A stretch of 55,716 nt of DNA, taken from assembly GCA_041665505.1 (NCBI GenBank), contig JBAYIR010000007.1, forward strand, positions 1 through 55,716, read 5' to 3'. The stretch is from Patescibacteria group bacterium (lineage in GTDB: Bacteria > Patescibacteriota > Patescibacteriia > UBA1558 > GWA2-36-10). The notes beneath the pieces were generated by a model. It was not told where the DNA came from, ran no database searches, and worked only from the letters and a program-made list of their open reading frames with translations. The translations under genes were made by a program, and so were the position numbers. How positions within the stretch are numbered: position 1 is the stretch's first letter; each line of letters begins with the position of its first letter. This document shows, one piece after another, positions 3,020 through 46,313 of this stretch.

Positions 3020-4264
3020 ATGCGCCTTGATTTGAAAACATATCTAGGTATCGTGCAAGCATTAAAGCGTAATAAGATGCGCTCTTTTTTGACTAGTTTG
3101 GGAATTGTGATAGGTATTTCATCGGTAGTAATTATCATGTCTGTCGGAGCAGGGGCCCAGAGTTTGGTGGTCAATCAGATTCAAGGTATTGGAGGAGATC
3201 TTTTGGCTATACTGCCAGGAGCTAGTGATGACAGTGGCCCACCAGCTGCAGTGATGGGTTTAAATATTACTACTTTAACAGCTGAAGATATTGAAGATAT
3301 AGCAGTCAGAGTGCCAGAGATTACAGCGGCGGCTGCTTATGTGCGTGGCGTAGCTACGGCTACTTGGCAGAATAAAACAGACGATACTAGTTTTTTGGGT
3401 ACGACTGGTAATTATATGCAAGTAGAAGAGGGAGCCGAGCTACAAAGTGGTAATTTTTTTAGTGAAGAGGAAGCTCAGTCTACTGCTAAGGTAGCTGTTT
3501 TAGGTAGTAAGGTAGCTGATGAACTTTTTGGAGGAAATAGTGACCCGATTGGTGAACGTGTTAAGATAAATAAAGAGTCTTTTCGAATAATAGGCGTGAT
3601 GGAAGAGAGAGGCACAGCTGGTTTTCAAGATCAAGATGATCAAATTTTTATTCCTATCTCTACAGCCCAAAAATTAATGTTGGGTATTAATTATCTTACC
3701 TTTGCTAGAGCCAAAGTAGCTCCCGGTTCGGATGTAGATTTTGTGATAGAACAAGTAAAAACTGTTTTGAGAGATAGACATGGTGTAGATGATCCACAAG
3801 GTGACGATTTTTCTGTTAGATCATCAGAATCAACTTTGGATACCTTAAAAAGTATTACAGATGCGCTTAATTATTTTTTGGGTATGGTAGCGGCTATATC
3901 ACTCTTAGTCGGAGGAATTGGTATTATGAATATTATGCTGGTTTCAGTAGCTGAAAGCACCAAAGAAATAGGTTTGAGGAAGGCAGTGGGTGCTACTCGC
4001 TTGGATATAAGTTTGCATTTTTTAATTCAAACTATTATTTTGTCATTTTTAGGGGGTTTTATAGGTATAGTATGGGGGATACTGATTTCATTTTTAGCTA
4101 GTGTGGTGGCTCAGGCTATGGGTTATAATTGGGATTTTGTCATATCAGTTGCTTCTATTGTAATTTCTTTGGCTTTTACTATTGTAGTGGCTCTAGCTTT
4201 TGGTTGGTATCCAGCCAGTCAAGCTGCAAGATTAAATCCGATAGAAGCATTACGTCACGAATAA
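3020..4264 (+). CDS. ABC transporter permease, FtsX/MacB type
   Basis: N-terminal TM, large extracytoplasmic domain and C-terminal FtsX-like 3-TM block (GGIGIMNIMLVSVAESTKEIGLRKAVGA). Confidence 0.85.
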   Translation: MRLDLKTYLGIVQALKRNKMRSFLTSLGIVIGISSVVIIMSVGAGAQSLVVNQIQGIGGDLLAILPGASDDSGPPAAVMGLNITTLTAEDIEDIAVRVPEITAAAAYVRGVATATWQNKTDDTSFLGTTGNYMQVEEGAELQSGNFFSEEEAQSTAKVAVLGSKVADELFGGNSDPIGERVKINKESFRIIGVMEERGTAGFQDQDDQIFIPISTAQKLMLGINYLTFARAKVAPGSDVDFVIEQVKTVLRDRHGVDDPQGDDFSVRSSESTLDTLKSITDALNYFLGMVAAISLLVGGIGIMNIMLVSVAESTKEIGLRKAVGATRLDISLHFLIQTIILSFLGGFIGIVWGILISFLASVVAQAMGYNWDFVISVASIVISLAFTIVVALAFGWYPASQAARLNPIEALRHE

Positions 4265-10680: not shown

Positions 10681-11181
10681 ATGTCTGAGCAGATTATTTT
10701 GGTAGATGAAAAAGATAATCAAATTGGCAGTGGTGAAAAATTAGCTGTTCACCAAAAAGGTCAATTGCATAGAGCTTTTTCTATTTTGGTTTTTAATTCC
10801 CGTGGTCAATTGTTGATTCAGCAAAGATCTGATAGTAAATATCATTGTCCAGGTCTTTGGGCCAATACTTGTTGTTCACATCCTGTAGTTGGAGAGACCA
10901 TAGATCAAGCCGCTCATCGTAGGTTAGAGGACGAAATGGGTTTTGATTGTCCTTTGGAAGAAAAAGGCAGTTTTATTTATAAGGTAGCTTTTGATAATAA
11001 TTTGATTGAACACGAGTTTGATCACGTTTTAGTTGGCTACTATGATGGGGATATAAAAATTAATCCTCAGGAAGTCAAAGATAGTCTTTGGCTAGAATTA
11101 GCTAGTTTAAAGAAGGATATGAGTGATTTTCCAAATAAATATGCCCCTTGGTTTAAAATAATAATAGACAAATTTTTTTAA
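10681..11181 (+). CDS. idi: isopentenyl-diphosphate delta-isomerase, type 1 (Nudix)
   Basis: LHRAFSILVFN, GLWANTCCSHP and EHEFDHV motifs. Confidence 0.85.
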   Translation: MSEQIILVDEKDNQIGSGEKLAVHQKGQLHRAFSILVFNSRGQLLIQQRSDSKYHCPGLWANTCCSHPVVGETIDQAAHRRLEDEMGFDCPLEEKGSFIYKVAFDNNLIEHEFDHVLVGYYDGDIKINPQEVKDSLWLELASLKKDMSDFPNKYAPWFKIIIDKFF

Positions 11182-11199
11182 AAGCCAAAGACTTAATCC

Positions 11200-11228
11200 T
11201 TGACTTTTTTCTCATTTTTGCTTATAAT
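11200..11228 (+). promoter_or_regulatory. sigma70-type promoter upstream of tRNA-Thr/rpmG
   Basis: TTGACT, 17-nt spacer, TATAAT. Confidence 0.55.
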
Positions 11229-11359: not shown

Positions 11360-11435
11360 GCCACCCTAGCTCAGTTGGTAGAGCAACGGTTTTGTAAACC
11401 GTCGGTCGTCGGTTCGAGTCCGACGGGTGGCTCCA
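11360..11435 (+). tRNA. tRNA-Thr (anticodon UGU), CCA encoded
   Basis: Cloverleaf folded by hand: acceptor gccaccc/gggtggc, anticodon loop ttTGTaa, T-arm gtcgg-ttcgagt-ccgac. Confidence 0.9.
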
Positions 11436-12044: not shown

Positions 12045-12118
12045 GGGGGCGTAGTATAGTGGTAGTACAAGGGTCTCCAAAACCTTTAGCGTGGGTTCGA
12101 TTCCTACCGCCCCTGCCA
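12045..12118 (+). tRNA. tRNA-Trp (anticodon CCA), CCA encoded
   Basis: Acceptor gggggcg/cgcccct, D-arm gtat-agtggta-gtac, anticodon arm agggt-ctCCAaa-acctt, T-arm gtggg-ttcgatt-cctac. Confidence 0.88.
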
Positions 12119-13158: not shown

Positions 13159-13178
13159 TAAATAATCAATCAGCAGAG

Positions 13179-13212
13179 CAAGATATTATTTATCTTGTTT
13201 TTTTGTATAAAA
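13179..13212 (+). terminator. intrinsic terminator, copy 2 of the 34-bp direct repeat
   Basis: Same hairpin plus T7 as 12225-12258. It abuts island A. Confidence 0.6.
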
Positions 13213-13216
13213 GAAA

Positions 13217-13243
13217 GCCGGGGCGCGCGTTGCGCACCCCGGC
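13217..13243 (-). terminator. island A terminator (GC hairpin)
   Basis: gccgggg-c-gcgc/gcgc-a-ccccggc hairpin 8 nt after the A1 stop, followed by a T-rich tail on the minus strand. Confidence 0.7.
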
Positions 13244-13251
13244 GTGGATCC

Positions 13252-13608
13252 TCAGATCCAGTACTTCAGCTCCTGGCGGCTGAACTGTCTGATCTTCGCC
13301 GCCTGACGGCGGGAGATCCCATGTCGCTGAGCGAACTCAGCATTGGTCTCCTGGTCGGGACAGTCAGGACCTGGCGTGAGCTGACGAGCTCTCTGCTGAA
13401 TGGTCTCGAAGCGATGATGCTTGAGAACATCCCAGCTGAACTGAGAGTCGTAGCAGCACTCGCATCCCCAACGCCGGACATTGTAGAAGGTGACCTCCTG
13501 ACACTGCGAACAGGCAGTACTCTCCCAGTAGTAGGGATCATTCATACACCTGTTCAGGTATTCGGTCAGCACGACATGTTCGTAGCTCCAGCGGCGCTCG
13601 GATTCCAT
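13252..13608 (-). CDS. island ORF A1: Cys-rich protein with C-terminal HTH-like segment (118 aa)
   Basis: SD AAGGAG 6 nt before the ATG, with its own promoter and terminator. Motifs CSQC, GCECC and TNAEFAQRHGISRRQAAKIR. Confidence 0.65.
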   Translation of the reverse strand: MESERRWSYEHVVLTEYLNRCMNDPYYWESTACSQCQEVTFYNVRRWGCECCYDSQFSWDVLKHHRFETIQQRARQLTPGPDCPDQETNAEFAQRHGISRRQAAKIRQFSRQELKYWI

Positions 13609-13800
13609 GGTTGGCTCCTTCTGAAGAATGCGTGGTCGAGACCAGCACCTTCAGAAAGGAGAGAGAAGGGGAAGGATGAGACTGAAGGTGCTTCAGATTT
13701 GCACCTAGCCTTAGTGAAATTCCCAGTTCCAAGGCATTTCTGCCTCTCTTTCATTGAAGAACGCACTCCGTCAGAAATACGAATATTTCTGACCCAAAGT
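13609..13800 (-). promoter_or_regulatory. structured GC-rich 5' leader of A1
   Basis: 10-bp hairpin capped by a UUCG loop (13770-13793). An 11-bp long-range stem (13644-13654 / 13682-13692) encloses a CU-rich loop and competes with a local hairpin (13682-13696). Confidence 0.5.
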
Positions 13801-13804
13801 AAAC

Positions 13805-13838
13805 ATTATATACTAACATATTTAAGCTATTTTGTCAA
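13805..13838 (-). promoter_or_regulatory. promoter of A1
   Basis: On the minus strand: TTGACA, 17-nt spacer, TAGTAT with TGn, and an overlapping TATAAT. It shares an identical 22-nt -35/UP segment with 14865-14886. Confidence 0.65.
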
Positions 13839-13851
13839 TGATATTATTTAT

Positions 13852-13887
13852 CTAAAACAAAAAGCCGGTACAATATTTCATGTACCG
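13852..13887 (-). terminator. terminator of the A3-A2 operon
   Basis: Stem cggtaca/tgtaccg followed by a T-run on the minus strand. Confidence 0.6.
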
Positions 13888-13938
13888 ACCAAGATCATCA
13901 CTCGGGGGTGGATGATCAAAACCCTTTGGTCTGGCTCC

Positions 13939-14283
13939 CTACGGAGCCTCGAGATCTTGATGCTCGAAGGGCAGAGCGCCCATTTGCTCCGCGTCCAGGA
14001 AGAACACGGGAAGATGCATCGTAGGCAAGCCGAAGTGTCGACCCGTCAGCTCTCTGGTAACCTCGGCGACCAGAGAGGCGTCCTGGCAGAGAATCAGCAG
14101 CTGGTTGCCCAACTTGAAGTCGGACCACAACCTGTTGTGGGGGATGCTCGTATCCCTCACTTCAACGTTGACAGTCATGCGTTCTCGGAGCTTGAGCACC
14201 TTGATGACCCTCTCGAGAGTCCCGGCTGTTGCGGGGTTGAGGTCAACCGTGCTCAGGTTGAGGTAAAGGATAAATAGGATCAT
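13939..14283 (-). CDS. island ORF A2: hypothetical protein (114 aa)
   Basis: SD GGAAGGAAGGG 3 nt before the ATG. Second gene of the operon. Confidence 0.6.
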   Translation of the reverse strand: MILFILYLNLSTVDLNPATAGTLERVIKVLKLRERMTVNVEVRDTSIPHNRLWSDFKLGNQLLILCQDASLVAEVTRELTGRHFGLPTMHLPVFFLDAEQMGALPFEHQDLEAP

Positions 14284-14343
14284 GTCCCTTCCTTCCGTTT
14301 TGGCCCAAGAAGGACCGTGTGAACGTGCGAGCTCAGGCGAGAG

Positions 14344-14673
14344 TTACTGCTTCTTCTGGAGCTGCTCCAGGCAGTCTTGAATCTCTGCATAAGCATCACG
14401 TTCGTCTTCTGTGACACCTCTCTTATAGAGAAGCATCGTTGATTGGGCTTGTCTTTGCTCGAAGTTTCCACCCTTGAACTCAAAAGTGTATTTACCAGGT
14501 CGAAAAAAAGGAAAGAAAAAATGACCAAAACCACTGCGTACACAGATGATCGTGTACGAATAAGTATCCGTATCGCATTGTTTGAGTACCTGACCATTTT
14601 CACCACAACCAGCCATGGCGACCAGACTGACGGTGAAGACGACGAGCATGAGGATCTGCCAGAACTTGCGCAT
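14344..14673 (-). CDS. island ORF A3: putative lipoprotein (109 aa)
   Basis: Signal peptide ending in a lipobox-like VAMAGC. AGGAAAGAG lies upstream of the ATG. Confidence 0.6.
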   Translation of the reverse strand: MRKFWQILMLVVFTVSLVAMAGCGENGQVLKQCDTDTYSYTIICVRSGFGHFFFPFFRPGKYTFEFKGGNFEQRQAQSTMLLYKRGVTEDERDAYAEIQDCLEQLQKKQ

Positions 14674-14845
14674 TCTCTTCTCACTCTTTCCTTGTTTAGC
14701 AGTTCTTACACTGCCGTGCTTGTGCCAGAACGCAGAATTATCTAGGCACTATACTGGGCTTAAGTTTTTTTAACTTATTCTTAAGCTTTCAATATAGTGG
14801 CTAGATAATATTTTTTTAAAAGAACTTATTTTAAGTTAATGCAGT

Positions 14846-14874
14846 ATTATATAATAAATATACAATTTTGTCAA
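14846..14874 (-). promoter_or_regulatory. consensus promoter of the A3-A2 operon
   Basis: On the minus strand: TTGACA (14869-14874), 17-nt spacer, TATAAT (14846-14851). Confidence 0.7.
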
Positions 14875-16535: not shown

Positions 16536-17207
16536 ATGAAAAAAACGATAGTTATTGTTGTTCTGGCAATAATATCATTGGGGTCATTGGGCTATATAAT
16601 ATCTAGTAATATGAAATCTGATACTATAAAAGCCACTGAAGTCAAAGATATTGCTGCAAAATTTATTAATGACAATTTGCTTCAGCCAGGTGTCACAGCC
16701 ACTATTGGTGAAGTGACCGAAGAAAATGCTTTGTATAAAGTGCCAGTCAATTTACCTGATGGCAGTAGTGTGGATTCTTATATGAGTACCGATGGTAAAA
16801 TTTTCTTCCCAGAAGGAATGAATATTGAAGAAGTAACTAAACAAATGGCTGACATTAAAGCAAATAACAATCAGAATCAAGGTCAAACACAATTGTTAAC
16901 AGAAGTTGTAACTGAAGGCACTGGTGATGTAGTGGTTGAAAGCGGTGATTCTATTACCGTTGATTACACTGGTACTTTGGAAGATGGCACAGAATTTGAT
17001 TCTAGTGTTGGCAAAACTCCTTTTACTTTCACTATTGGTCAAGGAACAGTTATTCCAGGTTGGGATCAAGGACTCTTGGGCATGAAAGTTGGTGAAGAAA
17101 GAAAATTGATTATTCCATCTGATTTAGCCTATGGTGCTAGTGGCTCTGGTTCTATACCACCAAATGCTACTTTGATTTTTACTGTTAAGTTAATTTCTAT
17201 AAATTAA
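16536..17207 (+). CDS. membrane-anchored FKBP-type peptidyl-prolyl isomerase
   Basis: N-terminal TM helix and a C-terminal FKBP domain (VDYTGTLEDGTEFDSS, GWDQGLLGMKVGE, LIFTVKL). Confidence 0.88.
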   Translation: MKKTIVIVVLAIISLGSLGYIISSNMKSDTIKATEVKDIAAKFINDNLLQPGVTATIGEVTEENALYKVPVNLPDGSSVDSYMSTDGKIFFPEGMNIEEVTKQMADIKANNNQNQGQTQLLTEVVTEGTGDVVVESGDSITVDYTGTLEDGTEFDSSVGKTPFTFTIGQGTVIPGWDQGLLGMKVGEERKLIIPSDLAYGASGSGSIPPNATLIFTVKLISIN

Positions 17208-17222
17208 TAATATTTAAAAAAG

Positions 17223-17250
17223 CACTCGCGTTATCACGTGGGTGTTTTTT
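17223..17250 (+). terminator. terminator of FKBP gene
   Basis: Stem cactcgcg/cgtgggtg with two GU pairs, followed by T6. Confidence 0.55.
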
Positions 17251-17287
17251 GTTTATTTAAATAATTTTTTTTAGAAAAAATAAATGA

Positions 17288-17312
17288 CCGGGGCGCGCTG
17301 CGCGCACCCCGG
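17288..17312 (-). terminator. island B terminator, near-identical to the island A terminator
   Basis: ccgggg-c-gcgc tgc gcgc-a-ccccgg. It has the same C/A mismatch as 13217-13243 and a T-rich tail on the minus strand. Confidence 0.7.
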
Positions 17313-17324
17313 CCGAGCTAGTGG

Positions 17325-17675
17325 CTACTCAGTAGCCATGTCGCTTTCGCTCATGAAGATCTCCAACCGACATCCGTAGATTCGGATGCCGAGCTTCTCG
17401 GCTCTGAGGGCCAAGATGACCAGATCAGCCTCGAGGCGGTCACTGTAGATGATCAACAGGGAGGGTTTGTCCACGGTCGGACCAGACACAGCCTTGTCCA
17501 CGGTCGGACCAGACACAGCCTTGACCACCTGCACATTGTCATGCAGATTGACCTCAGCATCATCCCCCAGTTTAAACTGTTTGATCACCCGCAAGATGGC
17601 ACCGAGGACACGCTTCTTGACGGCCATGGTATCTGTGTCTTTACTACCAAGGCCGTAGACCCCGAACAGGAACAT
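17325..17675 (-). CDS. island ORF B1: hypothetical protein, paralog of the B2 N-terminal domain (116 aa)
   Basis: Start moved to the ATG at 17675, which has SD AAGGAAGGAAG 3 nt upstream. Alignable to B2 (VLGAILRVIKQFKLGDDAEVNL vs VLSVICRVVQELRLRDDAVITL). Confidence 0.6.
   Translation of the reverse strand: MFLFGVYGLGSKDTDTMAVKKRVLGAILRVIKQFKLGDDAEVNLHDNVQVVKAVSGPTVDKAVSGPTVDKPSLLIIYSDRLEADLVILALRAEKLGIRIYGCRLEIFMSESDMATE
17467..17520. repeat. perfect 27-bp tandem duplication inside B1
   Basis: 17467-17493 equals 17494-17520. The duplication is in frame and encodes KAVSGPTVD twice. Confidence 0.9.
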
Positions 17676-17735
17676 TGGCTTCCTTCCTTTCAGAACTCCG
17701 CGATCCAAGCTGTGGAGCACTTGTCTGGGCGATCT

Positions 17736-18227
17736 CTAGAAGTCGAACTCTCCGGCGCCGGAGAGGCTGCTGCCCTCTTCCGGACCATCGATCTCGTCGC
17801 CTCCGTCGTCGTCGAGATGATCGCTCATCTGTCTGGCACTGGGGTCCAAGAGGGAGAGTTGGGGATTCTTTTTCGGACCATCGATCTCGTCGCCTCCGTC
17901 GTCGTCGAGTGGCCGACCCATCTCGCTTGCGCTGAAGAATTTGTTCAGGGCCGGTACTTCCGTGTCGAGCCGGAGGTTGTTCATCTTGAGAGCCAGCAGA
18001 ATGTGGCCCAGGTCGATCGGCTCGGGACAGAAGATCTCGAGGTAGGGTTTGGCCTGCGGTAGGCCAGGAACAGCCTGGAACACCTGGGACGAGAAGAGGG
18101 TGATGACAGCGTCATCTCGGAGGCGCAGTTCTTGAACCACACGGCAGATGACACTGAGCACCCATTCCCTGAGGGTAATGACCTCGATGGTATTGCCACC
18201 GAGACCATGTAGTTTGAAGTTGGGCAC
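17736..18227 (-). CDS. island ORF B2: hypothetical protein with acidic repeat tail (163 aa, GTG start)
   Basis: SD AAGGAAGGAG 5 nt before the GTG at 18227, which is 17 nt after the B3 stop. The C-terminus carries LDDDGGDEIDGP twice. Confidence 0.55.
   Translation of the reverse strand: MPNFKLHGLGGNTIEVITLREWVLSVICRVVQELRLRDDAVITLFSSQVFQAVPGLPQAKPYLEIFCPEPIDLGHILLALKMNNLRLDTEVPALNKFFSASEMGRPLDDDGGDEIDGPKKNPQLSLLDPSARQMSDHLDDDGGDEIDGPEEGSSLSGAGEFDF
17781..17909. repeat. two perfect 36-bp direct repeats inside B2
   Basis: 17781-17816 equals 17874-17909, a 93-nt in-frame offset. Confidence 0.9.
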
Positions 18228-18244
18228 GTCGACTCCTTCCTTGT

Positions 18245-18853
18245 CTAGAACTCCGCGATCCACGCGGTGAACCACTCGTCCGGACGATCGACATTGACCG
18301 TCAGAACGATTTTGCAGGTGCTCAAGTGCTTGAGCGGCGCACAGTTGTAGTACATTCCCAAGAAGATCTGCCGGGAGCTGGTCTCGCTCAGGCGGGTCTC
18401 GTTGAAGACCCCCAGGCGGGATTTTCCCAACTTGATCTGTTGGCGCAGGAGCCCGCTGTCGGACGACTGGTCGGTAGACCATTGGCCGAGGTTGTAGCTC
18501 TGCCAGACCAGACCGCGTCCCAGTGGCAGTGCGAAATCCAGTTCACCGGAAACGAAGCGGATCTTCTCCGCGCCGTCAACCGTGGACCAGGTCGGGCCAG
18601 CACCGACTTCGAACTTGTCGAAGCCGGGCACAGAGGTAGCGTAGCGAATCAGGACGTTCGACTGCTCGCCCGTGACGAACCAAGGATGGATCATCCAGCT
18701 GTCGCTGAGGTAGTAGTCGGCGAAGAACACGATCGGGATGTCGGAGCGGAGCTCCAGTCCGAAGGCATTGTCGCCAGCCATGGCCGGCTGGACGCTGATG
18801 ATGGTGAAGAGCACCAAGGCGAGGAGTAGTGAGTAGATGTTCTTGGAGCGCAT
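18245..18853 (-). CDS. island ORF B3: secreted beta-barrel-like protein ending in Phe (202 aa)
   Basis: SD GGAAGGAAAG, signal peptide ...VQPAMA/GD, alternating beta-strand-like pattern and C-terminal ...FTAWIAEF. Confidence 0.6.
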   Translation of the reverse strand: MRSKNIYSLLLALVLFTIISVQPAMAGDNAFGLELRSDIPIVFFADYYLSDSWMIHPWFVTGEQSNVLIRYATSVPGFDKFEVGAGPTWSTVDGAEKIRFVSGELDFALPLGRGLVWQSYNLGQWSTDQSSDSGLLRQQIKLGKSRLGVFNETRLSETSSRQIFLGMYYNCAPLKHLSTCKIVLTVNVDRPDEWFTAWIAEF

Positions 18854-19019
18854 GACTTTCCTTCCGGTGAGTGGACCTCTTTGGCCTGTTCAAATGTCTT
18901 CTAAGAAGTCACTTGAATTTGGCCGCTTACTTATCTATCGCCAAAGCTTAGCTACAGACGCTGCTTGTTGTCCATTTTTGGACTTGTATAAGGACAAATC
19001 GCACGGATTTTAACATTTT

Positions 19020-19048
19020 AAAGTAACATAGTTTATTGATTTTGTCAA
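19020..19048 (-). promoter_or_regulatory. promoter of the B3-B2-B1 operon
   Basis: On the minus strand: TTGACA, 17-nt spacer, TACTTT with a TGn extension. Confidence 0.5.
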
Positions 19049-19098
19049 TGTAGATAAATATGCTTTATTATTGATTTTATGACTTATACTTGTTTATA

Positions 19099-19127
19099 TT
19101 GACAATTTATATATTTTATGATATAAT
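19099..19127 (+). promoter_or_regulatory. divergent consensus promoter of B4
   Basis: TTGACA, 17-nt spacer, TATAAT (perfect consensus). Confidence 0.7.
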
Positions 19128-19197
19128 AATATATTAAGTTCAGAGTCCCGAGTTGATAAACCGGCCAAGCAATTGGCCTTAGACAGAGGAGATACTC

Positions 19198-19422
19198 ATG
19201 ATCCGTTCACTCAAGACCATTTTCAGCCCTTTCCGGCTGGTCTACGCCGGTGCTTCTCTCTGCCTCTACAACAGAGAGGCACATCGGAGCAAGATGGCCC
19301 AGCTGGCCGAAGGTGAACGCCTCTTCACCGAGGTGCTGGTTGGCGGCTTCATCACCGCCCTGATGGTCATCACCATCGTTTTCGCCAGTCGCTACATCGC
19401 GGCCGGCAGTATCTTGGTCTAG
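19198..19422 (+). CDS. island ORF B4: small protein with C-terminal TM helix (74 aa)
   Basis: SD GAGGAG 6 nt upstream, with its own promoter and terminator. Confidence 0.55.
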   Translation: MIRSLKTIFSPFRLVYAGASLCLYNREAHRSKMAQLAEGERLFTEVLVGGFITALMVITIVFASRYIAAGSILV

Positions 19423-19449
19423 GCCTGGCTCACGAGCTAGACCTGACCG

Positions 19450-19484
19450 GCCCCGGATCTGCGCAGATCCGGGGCTAGTTTTTT
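19450..19484 (+). terminator. island B right-hand terminator
   Basis: 13-bp perfect palindrome gccccggatctgc/gcagatccggggc followed by T6. Confidence 0.75.
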
Positions 19485-19567
19485 GTTTAAGAAAAAGCCA
19501 AAATTATTTTTTGCTTTGTCTATTTTCAAAAAGGGAGTAAAATATACTTATAATTTAAAATAAAGCT

Positions 19568-20557
19568 ATGGACAAAAATTTATTAAACAATTTACACAAA
19601 GACGCCGCTGCTAATATTTTGACGGATAAAGTACCTGTAGTCAGTCCAGAAAATACTATTCGCACAGTAGAGGAATATTTGCTCAAAAATGTTAGGAAGT
19701 TGGATTCTATAAATTATGTTTATGTGCTTAGCAAAACAGGCCTACTCAAAGGCGCTTTGTCTATTAAAGAAATTTTCCGACAGCCAAAAAATAGCAATAT
19801 TTCAGAAGTCATGGTCAAAGAGCTGATTACAGCTCATCCCCATACTGATCGGGAAAGAGTAGCTTATTTGGCTTTAAAAAATAATCTAAAGGCCATACCA
19901 GTTATAGATAAAGATGGTAAATTTTTGGGTGCAGTTTTGAGTGATACTATTTTAAATACTCTTTATCAAGAATCCCAAGAGGATATTTTGCACTTTGCCG
20001 GTGTAGGTCATCATAAAATTAATATAGATGATGTCACTTCTATGTCTTTAGTGGCTTCCTTAAAACACCGTTTGCCATGGTTGGTGCTTGGTCTAGTGGG
20101 AGGTATTTTGGCTGCTCAAGTTATTGCTTTATTTGAAACTACTTTATCAGAAAATATCATCTTGGCTGCTTTTATTCCTTTGGTGGTTTATATGGCTAGT
20201 GCGGTTGGGACACAAATTGGATTTTTTATCATCAGAGATTTGGCTATAAACCCAAAAATTAAATTTTTAATTTATTCTTTACGCCAATTTAGGGTTATAT
20301 TTTTTCTGGGCATAATTATAAGCATATTAATTTTTGCAGCGACTTTACTTTTTTACGGAAATTTATTATTAGCTTTTGTTTTGGGTTTAGCTATGTTTTT
20401 GGCTATTTTATCTTCTATTATCACTGGCTTATTTATTCCTTATGCTTTTAGTCGTTTACGTTTTGATCCAGCTAATGCTAGCGGTCCAATTGCTACTATT
20501 GTTCAAGATTTGACTAGTGTTACTATTTATCTTTTGGTAGCTAAGTGGCTGTTATAA
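19568..20557 (+). CDS. mgtE: magnesium transporter MgtE (short form)
   Basis: CBS pair followed by a 5-TM MgtE membrane domain (PIATIVQDLTSV). Confidence 0.75.
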   Translation: MDKNLLNNLHKDAAANILTDKVPVVSPENTIRTVEEYLLKNVRKLDSINYVYVLSKTGLLKGALSIKEIFRQPKNSNISEVMVKELITAHPHTDRERVAYLALKNNLKAIPVIDKDGKFLGAVLSDTILNTLYQESQEDILHFAGVGHHKINIDDVTSMSLVASLKHRLPWLVLGLVGGILAAQVIALFETTLSENIILAAFIPLVVYMASAVGTQIGFFIIRDLAINPKIKFLIYSLRQFRVIFFLGIIISILIFAATLLFYGNLLLAFVLGLAMFLAILSSIITGLFIPYAFSRLRFDPANASGPIATIVQDLTSVTIYLLVAKWLL

Positions 20558-32628: not shown

Positions 32629-32674
32629 CTGCTTACTGGAAGCAATCACCCCATACTTCAGGGAGGAAAAGTCC

Positions 32675-32989
32675 ATGAATGATTTTGACGACGTACTCCA
32701 ATATGGTCCTCATGAACCCTCGAGGTCCAGGACGCCCAGCATCTTCAATGGCAACCACTGCACTTGTGGTGGTTTGGTCAATTTGCAGACGGGCGTCTGC
32801 TGGCGGTGCCACCACCAGCACACTCTCGATCTGGATGGCGGCCAGCGCAATGCCAAGCCCAAGCCTCAGGTCTCTGAGGCAGAAAACTTGTTGCGATCGG
32901 TCAGCCTCAGCGAGAAGCAGTGCGATCTCTGCTTTCATGGAACCATCGGCGAGGATGGAAAATGTGATGTATGTGAGAACAGTCCGTAA
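32675..32989 (+). CDS. island ORF C1: double zinc-ribbon-like protein (104 aa)
   Basis: Start moved to the ATG at 32675, which has SD GGGAGGA 7 nt upstream. Motifs CTC...CWRC and CDLC...CDVC. Confidence 0.65.
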   Translation: MNDFDDVLQYGPHEPSRSRTPSIFNGNHCTCGGLVNLQTGVCWRCHHQHTLDLDGGQRNAKPKPQVSEAENLLRSVSLSEKQCDLCFHGTIGEDGKCDVCENSP

Positions 32990-33034
32990 ATCATTGCGGA
33001 CCATTCTAGGCGCTATCAGCGCCATTGCCTTCCA

Positions 33035-33069
33035 GAGAGCCGCGGACATGTTCGCGGCTCTCTCCTTTT
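33035..33069 (+). terminator. island C terminator
   Basis: 10-bp stem gagagccgcg/cgcggctctc followed by cttttt. Confidence 0.7.
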
Positions 33070-33109
33070 TACAAAAAATATGTTAAGATAAAAGAGTTTT
33101 AATAGTCAT

Positions 33110-39237: not shown

Positions 39238-40388
39238 TGGCTTTAAAAGATAAAATAAAAAATATTCCAGACCAACCTGGTGTTTATAGGTTTTTGGACA
39301 AAACAGGGGAGATTCTTTATATTGGTCGCGCTAGCTCGTTAAAGAAAAGATTGTCTCAATATTTTTTGAAAAATGTTGAAGCCAGAATAGCCGAGATGGT
39401 CTCTCAGGCTAGAGATATAAAATATCAAGAAACAGACACTATACTAGATAGTGTAGTTTTGGAAGCCAATCTAATAAAAAAACACTGGCCAAAATATAAT
39501 GTCAAAGATAAAGATAATCGTTCTTTTATTTATATTGTCATAGCCAAAACAGCTTTTGCCAAACCAATTATAGTCCGTGGTCGTGATTTGCAAAAATTTC
39601 CCAAAAATCAAGTGAATATTTTTGGTCCTTACCAAGCTCAAGCTTTGATAAAAAATGCTTTGCGTATTATCAGACGTATTTTCCCTTATAGCACCTGCCA
39701 AGTTTCATCTGGCCGACCTTGTTTTGATTATCAAGTGGGTCTTTGCCCAGGCGCTTGTGTAGATAAAATCAGTAAAAAAGATTATCAAAATAATATCAAA
39801 AATATTGGTTTATTACTGAGTGGCAAAAAAAAGCAATTGTTAAAAAAATTGCTAGTTGAAAATCCAGAGCAGGCGCGCAGCTTGAAGCATTTGCAGGATG
39901 TCTCACTTATTACCAATGAAGATTCTGTCTTGGGAGGTATCAATAGAATAGAGGGTTATGATATTTCTCATTTAGCTGGTAAAGAAAGTTATGGTGCCAT
40001 GGTAGTTTTTTCCGCTGGCGCGCCGGATAAAGCACAGTATCGTCTTTTCAAAATAAAAGAAGCACCCGCTAGTGATGATTTGCGTGCACTAGTAGAAGTA
40101 TTGTCTCGTCGTTTAAAACATAGCGAGTGGGCTAGGCCAGATCTGATGATGATAGATGGTGGCAAAGCGCAAATTGATTTTATAGATAAATATTTTAAAG
40201 CTAATAATATAAATATTCCGATTGTCGGCATCTCAAAATATAGTGGAGATAAGTTGATCTTCCCTCAGACTACAGCTAAACAGTTCAAAGATTTATCAAC
40301 CAGTATTAAAAATACCTTACTGAAAGTAAGGGATGAAGCGCATCGTTTTGGCAATGCGGCTGGTCGTAGAAAAAGAAGTAAATATTAA
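39237..40388 (+). CDS. uvrC: excinuclease ABC subunit C, short form (383 aa, no C-terminal HhH region)
   Basis: GIY-YIG N-terminus (GVYRF..GEILYIGRA), UVR-like segment, and IEGYDISH...MIDGGKAQ. It ends at ...RDEAHRFGNAAGRRKRSKY. Confidence 0.85.
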   Translation: MALKDKIKNIPDQPGVYRFLDKTGEILYIGRASSLKKRLSQYFLKNVEARIAEMVSQARDIKYQETDTILDSVVLEANLIKKHWPKYNVKDKDNRSFIYIVIAKTAFAKPIIVRGRDLQKFPKNQVNIFGPYQAQALIKNALRIIRRIFPYSTCQVSSGRPCFDYQVGLCPGACVDKISKKDYQNNIKNIGLLLSGKKKQLLKKLLVENPEQARSLKHLQDVSLITNEDSVLGGINRIEGYDISHLAGKESYGAMVVFSAGAPDKAQYRLFKIKEAPASDDLRALVEVLSRRLKHSEWARPDLMMIDGGKAQIDFIDKYFKANNINIPIVGISKYSGDKLIFPQTTAKQFKDLSTSIKNTLLKVRDEAHRFGNAAGRRKRSKY

Positions 40389-40404
40389 TTTTTTTAAAAT
40401 TTGA

Positions 40405-40435
40405 GACCCCGCCACGTTTCTGACGTGGCGGGGTC
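40405..40435. terminator. GC hairpin shared by the convergent uvrC and island D gene
   Basis: gaccccgccacg / cgtggcggggtc, starting 16 nt after the uvrC stop and ending 22 nt after the D1 stop. Confidence 0.65.
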
Positions 40436-40457
40436 CTTGCTTCTGGCTCAGCTGAGC

Positions 40458-40880
40458 CTAGGGATTGGCCGTGGTGGCCGGCTCGGGCCAGACGTGGTAG
40501 CCCAGCTTGAGGCCATCGGGGCCAGCGATCTCGGTCCGGGTCCGGATGGCATTCATGTTGAACACCAGACGACCGTAGATGGTCCGCTGATCTCCCTTGG
40601 GCAGGGCGTTGATCAGGGCACAGGCGTAGGACCAGCGCCGGGCGCTCTCGTGGTCGTGATGGCGTTCCTTGCGCAGACTGCGCAGGGCATCGGTGATGCC
40701 GAAGATATCACCCAGAGCGAGTTCTTCGGACTTGAACCAAGGCTGGTTCAGGATGGTGTGACCCAAGAGGGCCGCACCTTCCTCGTCATCAGGCATGACG
40801 ACAGCCATGTCCTCGAACGGAACGCCGAGGAAGGCGAAGAGGTCCTGGTAGTGATCGATCTTGGCAGCGGGGTGCTTCAT
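40458..40880 (-). CDS. island ORF D1: hypothetical protein (140 aa)
   Basis: SD AGGAG 9 nt upstream, with its own promoter and terminator. Confidence 0.6.
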   Translation of the reverse strand: MKHPAAKIDHYQDLFAFLGVPFEDMAVVMPDDEEGAALLGHTILNQPWFKSEELALGDIFGITDALRSLRKERHHDHESARRWSYACALINALPKGDQRTIYGRLVFNMNAIRTRTEIAGPDGLKLGYHVWPEPATTANP

Positions 40881-41009
40881 GTCAGTTAACTCCTGGCTCT
40901 AGCTTTTGTTTTTTTGCTAGTATTTTTCAACTAGCGCTCCTCCTTGAATCCGACGAATCCTTTCACGGTCTAGGGTGAATGGTGATGGGGGTGAACATAG
41001 AATTAATAT

Positions 41010-42721: not shown

Positions 42722-42810
42722 AATCTTTTATTTCCAGTACTTATATTATAGGGGTATTTGCCATTTTTAGCAAAATAGATTATAATAATTTTACTTTAAA
42801 ATTGAATAAT

Positions 42811-42973
42811 TTATCAAGAGAGCGGGGAGAGAATTGGCTCTATAATCCGCCAGCAACCCACTTACGCATCGCTTTTAGCGAGGAGCGAAGTAGGGTGCTA
42901 AGTCCAACCCTTAATTAAGGCAGGGAAAGATGATAAAATCATTATTACTTTCTCTGTTCGGGAAAGTTTTTTT
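42811..42973 (+). promoter_or_regulatory. SAM-I (S-box) riboswitch with terminator
   Basis: TTATCAAGAGAG..GGGGAGAGAATTGGCTCTATAATCCGCCAGCAACC...GGTGCTAAGTCCA...GAAAGATGATAA, then stem actttc/gaaagt plus T7 (42947-42973). It lies directly upstream of metK. Confidence 0.85.
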
Positions 42974-42997: not shown

Positions 42998-44008
42998 ATG
43001 TTAAAAACTGCAGAAAATGTAACTTTTGGTCATCCAGACAAAGTTTGTGATCAGATCTCGGATGCTATTTTAGATGAGTGTTTACGTCAAGATCCAAATA
43101 CCAGAGCTGGTATTGAAGTAGTAGGTGGGCATGGTCAATTATTTATTACCGGTGAGGTGAGTACCAAGGCTGATTTTGATGCTGCTCAAATAGCTAGAGA
43201 TTTATATAAAGAAATTGGTTATCAGGAAGAATTAAAAATAATGGTCAATATTGTCAGACAAAGTCCGGATATTGCTAGAGGAGTAGATACTGGTGGAGCT
43301 GGTGATCAAGGTATTATGGTTGGCTATGCTACTAGTGAGACTGAAGAATTATTACCTCGTGAGCATGTTTTGGCCAATAAGTTGGCTAGAAAATTGGAAG
43401 AAGTCAGACTTAAAGGCGAAACTGATTTAGCCAAAGTACTAATGCCAGATGGCAAATCTCAAGTTACTTTGGATAATGGTACTGTAGATACAGTAGTAGT
43501 CTCTACTCAACACAAAGAGGGCGTTGATCAAAATCAACTGAGAGAATGGATCATCAGTGAAGTGGTTAAACCTATCATACCTGAGTATAAAAAGATATTT
43601 ATTAACCCCACTGGCTCTTTTGTCCAGGGTGGCTTTGAGGCAGATGCTGGATTAACTGGTCGGAAAATAATTGTGGATAACTATGGTCCACAAATACCAG
43701 TGGGTGGTGGTTGCTACAGTGGTAAAGATGCTACCAAAGTTGACCGTTCAGCTGCTTTTATGGCTCGTTATTTAGCGGTAAAATATCTTAAGGAATATAA
43801 TGCCAAAGAAGTATTGGTTAAATTAGCCTATGCTATTGGTGAACCACAACCAGTCATGGCTACAGCCTTAGTTGACGGACAATCCGTTGAAATTAAAGGT
43901 TATGATTTGTCTCCAAAAGGTATTATTGACAAACTTAATTTGAGAAAACCACAATATAGAGATAGAGCTAGGTATGGTTATTTTGTTGCTTTTGATGTTA
44001 AAGAATAA
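42998..44008 (+). CDS. metK: S-adenosylmethionine synthetase (compact, 336 aa)
   Basis: GHPDKVCDQISDAILD, GAGDQGIM and GGGCYSGKDATKVDRS motifs. Confidence 0.9.
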   Translation: MLKTAENVTFGHPDKVCDQISDAILDECLRQDPNTRAGIEVVGGHGQLFITGEVSTKADFDAAQIARDLYKEIGYQEELKIMVNIVRQSPDIARGVDTGGAGDQGIMVGYATSETEELLPREHVLANKLARKLEEVRLKGETDLAKVLMPDGKSQVTLDNGTVDTVVVSTQHKEGVDQNQLREWIISEVVKPIIPEYKKIFINPTGSFVQGGFEADAGLTGRKIIVDNYGPQIPVGGGCYSGKDATKVDRSAAFMARYLAVKYLKEYNAKEVLVKLAYAIGEPQPVMATALVDGQSVEIKGYDLSPKGIIDKLNLRKPQYRDRARYGYFVAFDVKE

Positions 44009-44239: not shown

Positions 44240-44431
44240 ATGGTCAGATTTCGACATCCTAGTGGCACCGGATTCATAGATGTCTGTTACTGTCGCCCCT
44301 GTTTGAATTGTGATTACGATCACTGTCTGCATCGTCAAGATGCTGACGCTTCTCTCAAGGAAGAACAGCCAGACACGAAAAATGTCTTAGACAAGGAAGG
44401 AGGAAATCCAACAGAAGCGGATCTTCACTAG
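44240..44431 (+). CDS. island ORF E1: Cys-rich small protein (63 aa)
   Basis: SD AGGAAAGGGG. Motif CYCRPCLNCDYDHC. Confidence 0.55.
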   Translation: MVRFRHPSGTGFIDVCYCRPCLNCDYDHCLHRQDADASLKEEQPDTKNVLDKEGGNPTEADLH

Positions 44432-44461
44432 TGGGGAAAACAAAACCAAGGATGGTTAGCC

Positions 44462-44683
44462 ATGCAGCAAGTTAGTTCTGTGATCTCAGGAAAAGACTGC
44501 TGTGCCTGTGTTGGCCCGGCTTCCCGTGACCATGGTCATGATATCTTTTCCTGCGAAAACCACGAATGCGTGGTGGTGGCTCAGACCGTGGCTAATAGGT
44601 TTGTGGCTTCTCTGCGCGGAGACATGCAGAGCGAGTTGGCTCTTGATCTGGATCAGTTTCCTGATATCGGCCGTAGGCTTTAG
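44462..44683 (+). CDS. island ORF E2: Cys-rich small protein (73 aa)
   Basis: SD AAGGATGG. Motifs DCCAC and SCENHEC. Confidence 0.55.
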   Translation: MQQVSSVISGKDCCACVGPASRDHGHDIFSCENHECVVVAQTVANRFVASLRGDMQSELALDLDQFPDIGRRL

Positions 44684-44708
44684 GCTTTTCGGCTGTCGGC
44701 ATTGGTTA

Positions 44709-44740
44709 GTCGCGGACATTCCTTCGGGAATGTCCGCGAC
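44709..44740 (+). terminator. 14-bp GC hairpin with UUCG loop ending cassette 1
   Basis: gtcgcggacattcc ttcg ggaatgtccgcgac. The T-tail is weak. Confidence 0.5.
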
Positions 44741-44756
44741 CTCAAATTCATATAGT

Positions 44757-44784
44757 TTGACTAATTTTTGAAAAATGATAATAT
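44757..44784 (+). promoter_or_regulatory. island E cassette 2 promoter
   Basis: TTGACT, 16-nt spacer, TAATAT with TGn. Confidence 0.6.
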
Positions 44785-44791
44785 ATTTAAT

Positions 44792-44866
44792 ATGCAAGAT
44801 ATAAACAGACAATTGAATCAAAATTATTTTGGTTTTTACTTTTTCTTTAGTCGTCAGGCGACTTAG
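44792..44866 (+). CDS. leader mini-ORF 2 (24 codons)
   Basis: The ATG lies 7 nt after the -10 box, so the mRNA is probably leaderless. Encodes MQDINRQLNQNYFGFYFFFSRQAT. The TAG stop sits just 3' of hairpin agtcg/cgact, which is followed by a T-run. Confidence 0.35.
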   Translation: MQDINRQLNQNYFGFYFFFSRQAT

Positions 44867-44910
44867 TTTTTTGCATATATATTTATTAAAATAAATTGAG
44901 CATAGAAGCA

Positions 44911-44936
44911 AGTCGCCAAGCAGGCGGCTTTTTTTG
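44911..44936 (+). terminator. leader terminator 2
   Basis: Stem agtcgcc/ggcggct followed by T7. Confidence 0.65.
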
Positions 44937-45009
44937 ATAGTTCTTTCCATCTTTTCTTTCTGGATTCTTCTCTTGGTGTCAGCGTTCACCTACAAACGGA
45001 GGAAATCTC

Positions 45010-45144
45010 ATGAAGCACAAGCCAGACCTTAAGACCAGAGACCAAGCAGCTGGCCAGACCAAGCCTTCCAAAGAGGCTATAGCAGAGTTTGCCCGTCTGG
45101 TGGCCGAGCAACTGGCTAGCAGCCGGCATGGCTGCGGCATGTGA
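45010..45144 (+). CDS. island ORF E3: small protein (44 aa, not in ORF track)
   Basis: SD GGAGGA 7 nt upstream. Encodes MKHKPDLKTRDQAAGQTKPSKEAIAEFARLVAEQLASSRHGCGM. Confidence 0.5.
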   Translation: MKHKPDLKTRDQAAGQTKPSKEAIAEFARLVAEQLASSRHGCGM

Positions 45145-45169
45145 GTCTAACCAGACATCAATCGGGGGT

Positions 45170-45201
45170 GTGCCCGCAACATTAGCTAATGTTGCGGGCA
45201 C
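45170..45201 (+). terminator. 14-bp GC hairpin ending cassette 2
   Basis: gtgcccgcaacatt agct aatgttgcgggcac. Confidence 0.55.
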
Positions 45202-45207
45202 TTCTAT

Positions 45208-45236
45208 TTGACAGTCAAAATTTTTTATGATATTAT
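45208..45236 (+). promoter_or_regulatory. island E cassette 3 promoter
   Basis: TTGACA, 17-nt spacer, TATTAT with TGn. Confidence 0.6.
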
Positions 45237-45255
45237 TTTTTTATAAAAATTCAAT

Positions 45256-45306
45256 ATGTTTAGGAGTTTAATTATCATTATCAGCATTATTTTGTTAACG
45301 CCCTAG
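45256..45306 (+). CDS. leader mini-ORF 3 (16 codons)
   Basis: Encodes MFRSLIIIISIILLTP. The TAG stop lies inside hairpin cgcc/ggcg, which is followed by a T-run. Confidence 0.3.
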   Translation: MFRSLIIIISIILLTP

Positions 45307-45359
45307 GCGATCAGATTTTTGTTGCTAGTAATAATTTAACTTCCAAACATCAAAAATGA

Positions 45360-45388
45360 ATCGCCCAGCTGGCGGTTTTTCTTTTTTG
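45360..45388 (+). terminator. leader terminator 3
   Basis: Stem atcgcc/ggcggt followed by a ttttcttttttgg tail. Confidence 0.6.
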
Positions 45389-45492
45389 GAGAAAGTACAT
45401 TATCAATTCTATGCTTGTTTGACTGGAATTTCAGTTTCTGGGTCTAGCCTGAGAGTGAGTGTCGTCTACACCAGCACAAGGAGGCTTTCCTG

Positions 45493-45738
45493 ATGGACCA
45501 GATGCATTCAGACAGATACCAGCCCAAGAAAGGGCCGGCATTGATTCCGATTGTCAAGAAGGTTCTTCAGCGTATCTACGCTGAAGAGGATTTGGGAGGA
45601 GTCGACCCCATCCGCTCGGCGGAAAACGAATCCCTGATTGCCTTCTACCTGCGGCAGAACTGCCGCTGTCCGGCTGACAGCCAGTGGTGCATGTGCGGTG
45701 GAGGTTTCACTGTGTCTGACGGAAGGCGGAGCCCTTAG
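45493..45738 (+). CDS. island ORF E4: Cys-rich small protein (81 aa)
   Basis: SD AAGGAGG 8 nt upstream. Motifs NCRC and WCMC. Confidence 0.6.
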   Translation: MDQMHSDRYQPKKGPALIPIVKKVLQRIYAEEDLGGVDPIRSAENESLIAFYLRQNCRCPADSQWCMCGGGFTVSDGRRSP

Positions 45739-45759
45739 TCAAGCTTCAAGGAGGAAGAG

Positions 45760-46053
45760 GTGTTTCAGGAGGATGAGAGGCCTAAGAGGCCTCAAGATTT
45801 GCCCAAAGGGTTGTGGCGCTGCCAGTACTGTGAACAGGAGTTTTGTACTCCACTTAGTTGTTTGGAGAGGCTCAGAGCCCTTCACTCAGAAAGAGAGCGA
45901 GAAATGAAGGATCGAGACGAGCAAAAGGTGGCTAGCGACCAAGAACAGCCGCCAACTGAGAAGCCTCAGGCTCCCAGTGTTTGTGCTGAATGTCAGTGCC
46001 CTGACCGTCAGCATGGTCGTGAATGTTCTTACCATATTGCGGTCATCATCTGA
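45760..46053 (+). CDS. island ORF E5: Cys-rich small protein (97 aa, GTG start)
   Basis: SD AAGGAGGA 4-5 nt upstream. Motifs CQYC..FC..SC and CAECQC. Confidence 0.55.
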   Translation: MFQEDERPKRPQDLPKGLWRCQYCEQEFCTPLSCLERLRALHSEREREMKDRDEQKVASDQEQPPTEKPQAPSVCAECQCPDRQHGRECSYHIAVII

Positions 46054-46079
46054 CCAAGAGGTCAGCGACGACCTTAGAA

Positions 46080-46118
46080 GCCCCACCACGTCCGACGTGG
46101 TGGGGCTCTATATTTTTT
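46080..46118 (+). terminator. island E final terminator
   Basis: gccccaccacgt / acgtggtggggc followed by a T-run. It resembles the hairpin at 40405-40435. Confidence 0.7.
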
Positions 46119-46313
46119 AGAAAAATTAATCTTTTTTCATTTCATCTAAGATTTAGTAATATATGAAATTTTGTGTTTTCTTTAGCAATTTGACAAGTTT
46201 TTTTATTTGTGTATAAGTTTTAGCCCATTTTCATTGACTAATCTTCACAAAGTTTGACAAATGTGCTATATTTATTGGAGAAAAATAATAATTAATTAAC
46301 TAACATTAAGTTT

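Follow-up and report, generated by a model that had tools for sequence, protein, structure and literature searches.

We examined a GC-rich gene block, here called Island B, in a 55.7-kb stretch of Patescibacteria DNA (the window, by which we mean the whole stretch analysed). Our preferred, though tentative, reading is that Island B represents a long-resident, lineage-restricted Patescibacteria module encoding an exported porin-like barrel, B3, together with fast-evolving cytoplasmic partners. The firm part of this reading is that the island is resident, selected, and strongly promoted, and that a porin-like 12-stranded barrel destined for export is predicted as its main product. The block (53-62% GC at approximately 17255-19524, in a window of 36% GC overall) lies between an FKBP-type isomerase gene and an MgtE gene. 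It comprises the genes B3, B2, and B1, which form one minus-strand operon with its own promoter and terminator, and the divergently oriented gene B4 (Table 1). The long open reading frames (ORFs) of the window are almost all on the plus strand. The initial annotation of this DNA had described a minus-strand B3-B2-B1 operon with Shine-Dalgarno sequences of the GGAAGGA type, and such a ribosome-binding site can be read directly in the sequence ahead of each of the three genes.

The reading frames of the island are considered real because their G+C content at third codon positions (GC3, 0.71-0.83 in frame) is high relative to that at second positions (GC2, 0.34-0.43) and because the ratio of nonsynonymous to synonymous divergence (dN/dS) against orthologs is below 1; the GC3 of the neighbouring genes is 0.23-0.33. 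Island B with identical flanks recurs in JGI assemblies and in Logan assemblies of public sequencing runs, that is, in independent assemblies from other projects, and thus is not an assembly chimera. Scans of B1-B4 and the other island ORFs against Pfam, NCBIfam, PHROGs, and PADLOC gave no meaningful match. Long spurious ORFs arise in several frames within the GC-rich islands, which makes automatic annotation unreliable there. In the related lineage L007 (positions 3342-3953; lineages and contigs are referred to by such handles throughout), the public annotation places a 169-amino acid ORF on the wrong strand atop an intact B3 ortholog of 203 amino acids (80% identical).

The predicted barrel of B3

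The B3 protein begins with MRSK, continues with a hydrophobic core, and carries an AMA/GD cleavage site, which by sequence pattern constitutes a Sec signal peptide. An alignment of eight close B3 homologs revealed a conserved signal peptide, an AxAG(D/N)NAFG start of the mature protein, and a WIAEF end, with the C-terminus being the most conserved segment. The signal peptide and the Phe-ended WIAEF motif, both pointed out in the initial annotation, are therefore present not only in the window but also in these close homologs. In the B3 end WFTAWIAEF, positions 1, 3, 5, 7, and 9 counted from the C-terminus are occupied by F, A, W, T, and W, respectively, an arrangement that resembles a beta-signal. 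The terminal residue is Phe in 20 of the 28 B3-family members and Leu or Ile in the remainder. The mature protein would comprise about 175 amino acids, with a grand average of hydropathy (GRAVY) of -0.11 and an isoelectric point (pI) of 5.0.

Using the alignment of eight sequences, we obtained an AlphaFold2 model of B3 (predicted local distance difference test score [pLDDT] 82, predicted template modeling score [pTM] 0.68) that consists of a signal helix (residues 4-20) followed by 12 strands connected by short turns. The strands of the model are long, up to 17 residues. Among the matches listed in a Foldseek comparison with the PDB, all those at probability 1.00 were transmembrane beta-barrels, either natural or designed, including Omp33, the beta-domains of invasin and intimin, FapF, PcoB, KdgM, NanC, and designed 10- and 12-strand barrels. 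Template modeling scores (TM-scores) of 0.5-0.6 at probability 1.0 were obtained against the 12-stranded KdgM, NanC, PcoB, invasin/intimin, FapF, and a designed 12-strand barrel. The best matches in a viral structure library were likewise barrels of porins and outer-membrane proteins. The two faces of the strands differed in mean hydropathy (1.49 versus -0.72), and this difference was reached by 132 of 5000 within-strand shuffles. Based on the model, the Foldseek matches, the strand alternation, and the C-terminus, the outer-membrane-type barrel that had been claimed for B3 is supported at the level of prediction.

Residence, composition, and regulation of Island B

Eight clusters of the B3 family were identified in a set of 5.8 billion proteins, and 20 were recovered when 1.84 billion representatives were searched with a profile. 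These relatives are about 190-220 amino acids long where complete, possess a signal peptide, and mostly end in Phe. Every B3-carrying contig that could be placed is Patescibacteria or Patescibacteria-like, with several contigs remaining uninspected. Pattern scans of the GTDB species representatives found no sequence with the close B3 alignment and only the Candidatus Parcubacteria metagenome-assembled genome (L089) with the distant alignment, and B3 searches of IMG/VR, phage, and plasmid collections gave no match. The B3-family gene of L089 is located between SMC and RNase III/NusB/L32. L091 and L093 have RNase III/NusB/L32 on one side as L089 does, with SMC also found in L093, and P0023 is an 82-kb compact contig with FtsH, a pilus ATPase, TsaD, and NusA.

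The cluster-mates of the window's UvrA (at least 90% identity) are named 'Patescibacteria group bacterium', and Patescibacteria have been described as monoderm (PMC11665869; PMC12102498; PMC8871954), with secretion systems of the monoderm type (PMC11665869; PMC12102498). The monoderm host presumed in the initial annotation agrees with these data; the host genome in this analysis is the 55.7 kb of the window, and its one-membrane status is taken from the phylum-level literature. When the B3-B2 pair was sought in other genomes, it was found next to the FKBP gene not only in the window (as well as in L001 and L002) but also in the lineages of L004 and L008 (the latter with L005). The island of L005 and L008 occupies the same locus, and only L003/L006 and a marine clade differ in its position. 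In L007, B4-B3-B2 lies beside MgtE, and the contig ends before the FKBP position. An empty site was sought downstream of FKBP in relatives, where L010 proved to be rearranged and no clean empty site was found. Neither an integrase-like ORF nor a tRNA was found near Island B. A 12-nt flanking direct repeat, GTTTTTTGTTTA, was considered as a target-site duplication and rejected, since both copies are terminator T-tails and the repeat is absent from L004.

Synonymous divergence (dS) between the window and L004 was 0.36 for B3 and 0.75 each for B2 and B4, compared to 0.23, 0.43, and 0.38 for the flanking FKBP, MgtE, and SDR genes, respectively. The dS values of the island are similar to those of its flanks, and the island was therefore already present in the common ancestor of the window and L004. 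The dN/dS ratios were 0.12-0.26 for B3, 0.35-0.63 for B2, 0.29-0.48 for B4, and 0.03-0.11 for the flanking genes, indicating that the island genes are under purifying selection yet fast-evolving. B2 orthologs are 44-57% identical where the flanking genes are 95-97% identical. The GC skew is positive across the whole window, and nearly all housekeeping genes are on the plus strand, whereas the main island operons (A1, A2, B3-B2-B1, and the Island D ORF) lie on the minus strand, against the general direction of transcription. This orientation may be linked to their fast evolution.

The GC3 of B3 is 0.83 in the window, where the neighbours have about 0.25; it is 0.82 in L004 at a dS of 0.36 from the window and 0.71 in L008 at a dS above 1.2. 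Synonymous third-position changes were polarised in the sister lineages L004 and L007 with the window as a close outgroup. For B3, GC-to-AT changes were observed at 13 of 117 GC sites and AT-to-GC changes at 12 of 27 AT sites, and these counts suggest an equilibrium GC3 near 0.8. When B3, B2, and B4 were combined, AT-to-GC changes affected 17 of 49 AT sites, compared to 15 of 232 in MgtE (Fisher p=8e-7). A raised B3 GC3 relative to the genome recurs in separate clades, namely in L089 (0.82 versus 0.29), L091 (0.69 versus 0.28), and L095 (0.71 versus 0.3). GC1 and GC2 (the corresponding values for first and second positions) are also somewhat raised, and thus the bias reaches the amino acid composition. 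It may be kept up by selection, biased gene conversion, or repeated exchange within the phylum.

The divergent consensus promoters described in the initial annotation were recovered in part: the B4 promoter is perfect, whereas the B3 promoter, with its TACTTT element, is weaker than consensus. Two perfect TTGACA-N17-TATAAT sites occur in the 55.7-kb window versus 0.10 expected by chance, the second of them being located in Island A. The -35 motif ATTGACAAAAT is found exactly in the B3 promoter and in both Island A promoters, and the two islands also have in common a terminator type of the form CCGGGG...CCCCGG (the Island A hairpin lies at 13217-13243). The distant B3-family gene of L089 is equipped with a near-perfect promoter and a GC-rich hairpin terminator. 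Beside this gene (10700-11212, minus strand), approximately 180-480 nt at 46% GC that lie downstream of a perfect TTGACA-17-TATAAT promoter with TG contain terminator-like hairpins and no convincing ORF; this region may encode a small RNA or a small protein. In the FKBP terminator hairpin (17217-17250), the stem sequence is wholly different in the window, L004, and L008, and the T-rich tail and the adjoining island terminator are conserved across the three, so that the hairpin seems to turn over quickly with its function kept.

The 345-nt intergenic region between B3 and B4 is approximately 95% identical among the window, L004, and L007, whereas divergence at synonymous sites of the surrounding genes amounts to 20-47%. 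For the B3 operon leader, the predicted folding energy is -44.8 kcal/mol (z=-3.49), and none of 200 shuffled sequences was as stable; in the predicted structure, the ribosome-binding site is base-paired with a 5' UCCUU segment. In the leaders of L008 and L005, the promoter, the first ~25 nt, and the UCCUU/AAGGA pairing are kept and the central 100 nt are missing, and the short L008 form folds no better than shuffled sequence. A search against Rfam (E<=1) gave no credible match within Island B. Being conserved, stably folded, and without an Rfam match, the B3 leader represents a candidate new cis-regulatory RNA. Both the B3 promoter and the leader are AT-rich and host-like in composition. The B4 protein on the other side of this region is basic (pI 9.9) and has a single C-terminal hydrophobic helix at about residues 45-63; its gene is kept in L002, L004, and L007 and absent in L008.

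B2, B1, and the neighbouring islands

The paralogy of B1 and B2 proposed in the initial annotation is borne out by statistical alignment (BLASTP E=2e-11, 30% identity over 111 amino acids). Nucleotide identity between their coding sequences is 52.5% overall and 41.5% at third positions. Immediately following the stop codon of B2, and ahead of the B1 ribosome-binding site, lies a relic of the 3' end of B3. Its positions 17692-17734 match 18247-18289 over 43 nt with 84% identity, so that the copy of the B3/B2 junction recognised earlier upstream of B1 is indeed present and is longer than claimed. The junction copy stands, but the accompanying account, in which B1 arose by duplication of this junction together with B2, does not hold as a single event: one tandem duplication is unlikely because the relic is 84% identical while identity between the coding sequences of B1 and B2 is only 52.5%. 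To judge from these identities, either the B3/B2 junction would have been homogenised or a diverged paralog would have recombined in at the conserved B3 3' end. B1 was found only in the window's species and is absent from L004 and L008.

In-frame repeats occur in both paralogs. B1 contains a perfect 27-nt tandem repeat (17467-17520) that encodes KAVSGPTVD twice. The acidic tail of B2, which ends in FDF, contains a 67-nt repeat (17775-17934) with a duplicated LDDDGGDEIDGP unit, and the number of tail units varies by lineage (0 in L008, 1 in L004, and 2 in the window and L007). Both repeat expansions are recent. The MPNFK N-terminus is common to four B2 orthologs, and B1 starts with MFLF and the Island A copies with MILF, both without Pro-1. 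The low-confidence B2 model (pLDDT 50) assigns no fold and gives only a predicted order of secondary-structure elements, beta-alpha-beta-beta-alpha-beta, for a core of about 105 amino acids. A Foldseek search with this model found nothing at E<1e-3, the top matches, weak and of a generic ferredoxin-like type, being ACT domains, ribosomal protein S6, and designed ferredoxin folds, and a profile search of the PDB with the B2 sequence found nothing. B2, B1, and the Island A copy are without a signal peptide and are mildly to strongly acidic (pI 4.3-5.8). Their family comprises eight clusters among 5.8 billion proteins, with three copies in the window.

The third of these copies belongs to Island A, which mirrors the layout of Island B in that a gene for an exported protein is followed by a B2-like gene. 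Island A (13161-14762) is one of four further GC-rich islands that are interspersed between AT-rich housekeeping genes, the others being located at 32645-33074, 40330-40961, and 44430-46124. The ORFs of these four islands have GC3 values of 0.49-0.80 and no Pfam match, and several are Cys-rich. Island A consists of two minus-strand units, each with the promoter motif mentioned above, and Island C begins with ATTGACAAATT. Elsewhere in the window, a SAM (S-adenosylmethionine) riboswitch of the S-box type (59.4 bits) was detected at 42808-42936, upstream of the gene at 42998-44008; the only other Rfam matches in the window were the tRNAs Thr-TGT (11360-11435) and Trp-CCA (12045-12118).

Table 1. 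Coordinates of Island B, its edges, and the related features of Island A in the window (aa, amino acids; RBS, ribosome-binding site)
Feature	Position	Strand	Description
Third B1/B2-family member	13939-14283	-	Island A
Lipoprotein-like ORF	14344-14673	-	Signal peptide ending LVAMAGC; upstream of the third B1/B2-family gene
Island A perfect promoter	14846-14874		Drives the lipoprotein-like ORF and the B1/B2-family gene
FKBP-type isomerase gene	16536-17207		One edge of Island B
B3-B2-B1 intrinsic terminator	17314-17286	-	GC-rich hairpin GGCCGGGGTGCGCGCAGCGCGCCCCGGTC, then T run
B1	17325-17675	-	116 aa; RBS aaaggaaggaagccaATG
Relic of B3 3' end	17690-17734	-	14 codons plus TGA stop; reads DRPDKCSTAWIAEF, then stop
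B2	17736-18227	-	163 aa; GTG start; RBS aaggaaggagtcgacGTG
B3	18245-18853	-	202 aa; RBS ggaaggaaagtcATG
B3 operon leader	18854-19012	-	About 155 nt
B3 operon promoter	19048-19020	-	ATTGACAAAAT at -35; TTGACA (19048-19043), 17-nt spacer, TG-n-TACTTT
B4 promoter	19099-19127	+	Perfect TTGACA-N17-TATAAT; upstream TG
B4	19198-19422	+	74 aa
B4 intrinsic terminator	19449-19476	+	Ends the B4 unit
MgtE gene	19568-20557		Other edge of Island B

Proposed role and comparison with known systems

According to the reading that we prefer, B3 would be made with a Sec signal peptide, exported, and cut after AMA, and it would fold as a 12-stranded transmembrane-type barrel whose exterior is hydrophobic, whose lumen is charged, and whose C-terminus resembles a beta-signal. 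Because the producer is thought to be without an outer membrane and barrel-assembly machinery (BAM), the home of B3 would most likely be a bilayer beyond its own cytoplasmic membrane. Our leading guess is that B3 inserts in the outer membrane of the diderm cell that hosts the epibiont and there would open a small solute channel. B2 and B1 would most likely act as partner proteins, either a holdase/chaperone or a regulator, of the exported protein encoded upstream; the repeated layout of an exported-protein gene with a B2-like gene and the acidic tail are the whole basis of this assignment. B4 would be a small tail-anchored membrane protein. The conserved promoter would drive the operon and the conserved structured leader would mask the ribosome-binding site, and the GC-rich composition would be a persistent property of the genes rather than the residue of a recent transfer. 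In a more specific form of this proposal, which is possible although rather unlikely, B3-family barrels are effectors planted in the outer membrane of the diderm host, where they provide a nutrient channel at the contact site. Such effectors would insert either spontaneously or with the aid of the host's BAM machinery, and the GC-rich coding sequence of the island genes would be actively maintained and not donor-inherited. A still more extreme version, in which the island genes are adapted to being expressed within the host cell, is very unlikely.

Several observations weigh against this interpretation. To our knowledge, neither barrel-assembly nor chaperone machinery is known in Patescibacteria, and we know of no established precedent for the insertion of a barrel from outside into the outer membrane of another cell. 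The barrel is a model derived from only eight sequences, the hydrophobicity difference between the strand faces is only modestly significant (p about 0.03), and B3 has no sequence match in Pfam or NCBIfam (E<=1) or, by profile search, in the PDB (E<=10). The chaperone role of B2 and B1 is suggested only by analogy, and distant B3 relatives occur without a B2 partner. With L008 as the outgroup, which is saturated, GC-to-AT changes in the island genes numbered 13 of 104 and AT-to-GC changes 3 of 37, counts that fit slow decay; given both outgroups, the data are suggestive of a stationary B3 GC3. In addition, the GC3 of the B3-family gene is native-like in L097 (0.28) and L088 (0.49). Finally, few Patescibacteria envelopes have been imaged so far (PMC8871954).

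The initial annotation had derived the operon from a diderm donor. A recent transfer from a donor of ~60% GC, which would have left the operon without a clear function in this host, could explain the contrast in GC3 (0.71-0.83 versus 0.23-0.33 in the neighbours) along with the GC-type amino acid composition, the fold and C-terminal motif typical of outer-membrane proteins, and the variation of island position and content by lineage (B4 missing in L008, B1 present only in the window's species). However, no donor homolog was detected among the 5.8 billion and 1.84 billion proteins, the GTDB representatives, or the plasmid, phage, and IMG/VR collections, and the dS of the island is like that of its flanks, with dN/dS well below 1. 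The B3 GC3 is still 0.82-0.83 at a dS of 0.36 and 0.71 at a dS above 1.2, and the AT-rich promoter and leader are host-like and strongly conserved. With the B3 composition apparently stationary, we regard a recent diderm origin as improbable and no longer retain that part of the initial annotation. It is likewise quite improbable that B3 is a soluble ligand-binding beta-barrel, secreted or wall-associated, with a likeness to outer-membrane proteins in fold only. Such a protein would be compatible with the absence of a sequence match to any outer-membrane-protein family, the GRAVY and pI of the mature protein, and TM-scores of only 0.5-0.6, but the long strands with short turns, the listed probability-1.00 matches, all of which are transmembrane barrels with the designed ones included, the hydrophobic/polar alternation, and the terminal aromatic residue conserved throughout the family argue against it.

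Two further explanations concern the membrane that B3 would enter. If the island were a toxin-immunity cassette, B3 would act as a pore-forming toxin secreted against hosts or competitors, with B2, B1, and perhaps B4 serving as its immunity or neutralising factors, and B1 together with the relic would correspond to the displaced orphan modules of polymorphic toxin loci. The fast evolution of B2 (44-57% identity, dN/dS 0.35-0.63), the tandem paralogs accompanied by a relic of the upstream gene's 3' end, the lineage-specific copy number, and the small membrane protein encoded alongside all fit this scheme. We nevertheless consider it unlikely. The C-terminus of B3, where a variable toxin tip would lie, is its most conserved part; the distant B3 relatives have no B2-like gene beside them and occupy conserved housekeeping positions on their own; neither the PADLOC defence library nor the Pfam toxin families gave a match; and, in contrast to the soluble B2 and B1, the immunity proteins known to act against pore formers reside in membranes. 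Alternatively, the producer clade could have an unrecognised outer membrane or membrane-like sheath with B3 as its porin, as would agree with the sequence features that B3 shares with self-made outer-membrane proteins (signal peptide, barrel, and terminal Phe), the strong promoters in two distant clades, the conserved housekeeping position in the Parcubacteria clade, and envelope data that cover very few members of the phylum (PMC8871954). This possibility appears improbable in view of the description of the phylum as monoderm with monoderm-type secretion (PMC11665869; PMC12102498), the extreme rarity of the family (20 clusters), which is unlike a general envelope component, and the fact that no outer-membrane biogenesis gene was seen beside any inspected family member. 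Overall, we rank a channel in the host outer membrane first, followed by a pore-forming toxin, an unrecognised layer of the producer, a soluble barrel, and a recent diderm import.

The proposed channel touches the question of how ultrasmall, dependent Patescibacteria extract nutrients from their hosts. The reviews retrieved in our literature searches list lytic enzymes, pili, and type IV secretion and no pore, and neither outer-membrane-type barrels nor persistently GC-rich gene modules turned up in these searches as described for this phylum. As a rare, conserved, and strongly promoted gene in a lineage believed to be without an outer membrane, B3 offers a testable candidate either for a host-delivered pore or for a sign of an unrecognised envelope layer in some Patescibacteria. 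A B3 GC3 near 0.8 in a genome near 0.25, observed at distances where decay is expected, is a compositional phenomenon in its own right, and it bears on the habit of reading GC-rich islands as recent transfers.

Comparison with known systems places the island genes in several contexts. The B2 orthologs resemble the tautomerase superfamily (4-OT, MIF) in their Met-Pro start and in two predicted beta-alpha-beta units within ~105 amino acids, but Pro-1 is missing from B1 and the Island A copy, Pfam gave no match at E<=1, and the top 50 fold matches include no tautomerase. The tautomerase resemblance suggested initially for B1 and B2 is not upheld. The 3' relic and ribosome-binding site ahead of a diverged downstream paralog recall the orphan toxin-tip/immunity modules of polymorphic toxin loci such as contact-dependent inhibition (CDI) and Rhs systems, although the relic of Island B spans only 14 codons from the conserved end of B3 and no toxin domain is recognisable. 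Island B shares a sharp GC jump, atypical codon usage, and variable content between relatives with horizontally acquired islands. It differs from them in that no integrase, tRNA target, reliable direct repeats, or donor was found, and also by its flank-like dS, apparently stationary B3 GC3, and host-like conserved regulatory DNA.

The closest structural parallels of B3 are the small 12-stranded outer-membrane channels, such as KdgM/NanC, Tsx, PcoB, the FapF barrel, and the invasin/intimin beta-domains, to which it is similar in size (~175 amino acids when mature), Sec signal, and 12 predicted antiparallel strands. It also resembles them in its predicted hydrophobic exterior and charged lumen, in the terminal Phe, and in TM-scores of 0.5-0.6. 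The two groups differ in that no sequence relationship is detectable between them and in that the known channels belong to diderms, whereas the carrier of B3 is regarded as being without an outer membrane and BAM. Compared to the outer-membrane channel families, the B3 family is tiny and confined to Patescibacteria as far as traced. The predicted fold is a known one, and what is new is its Patescibacteria setting and its compositional behaviour.

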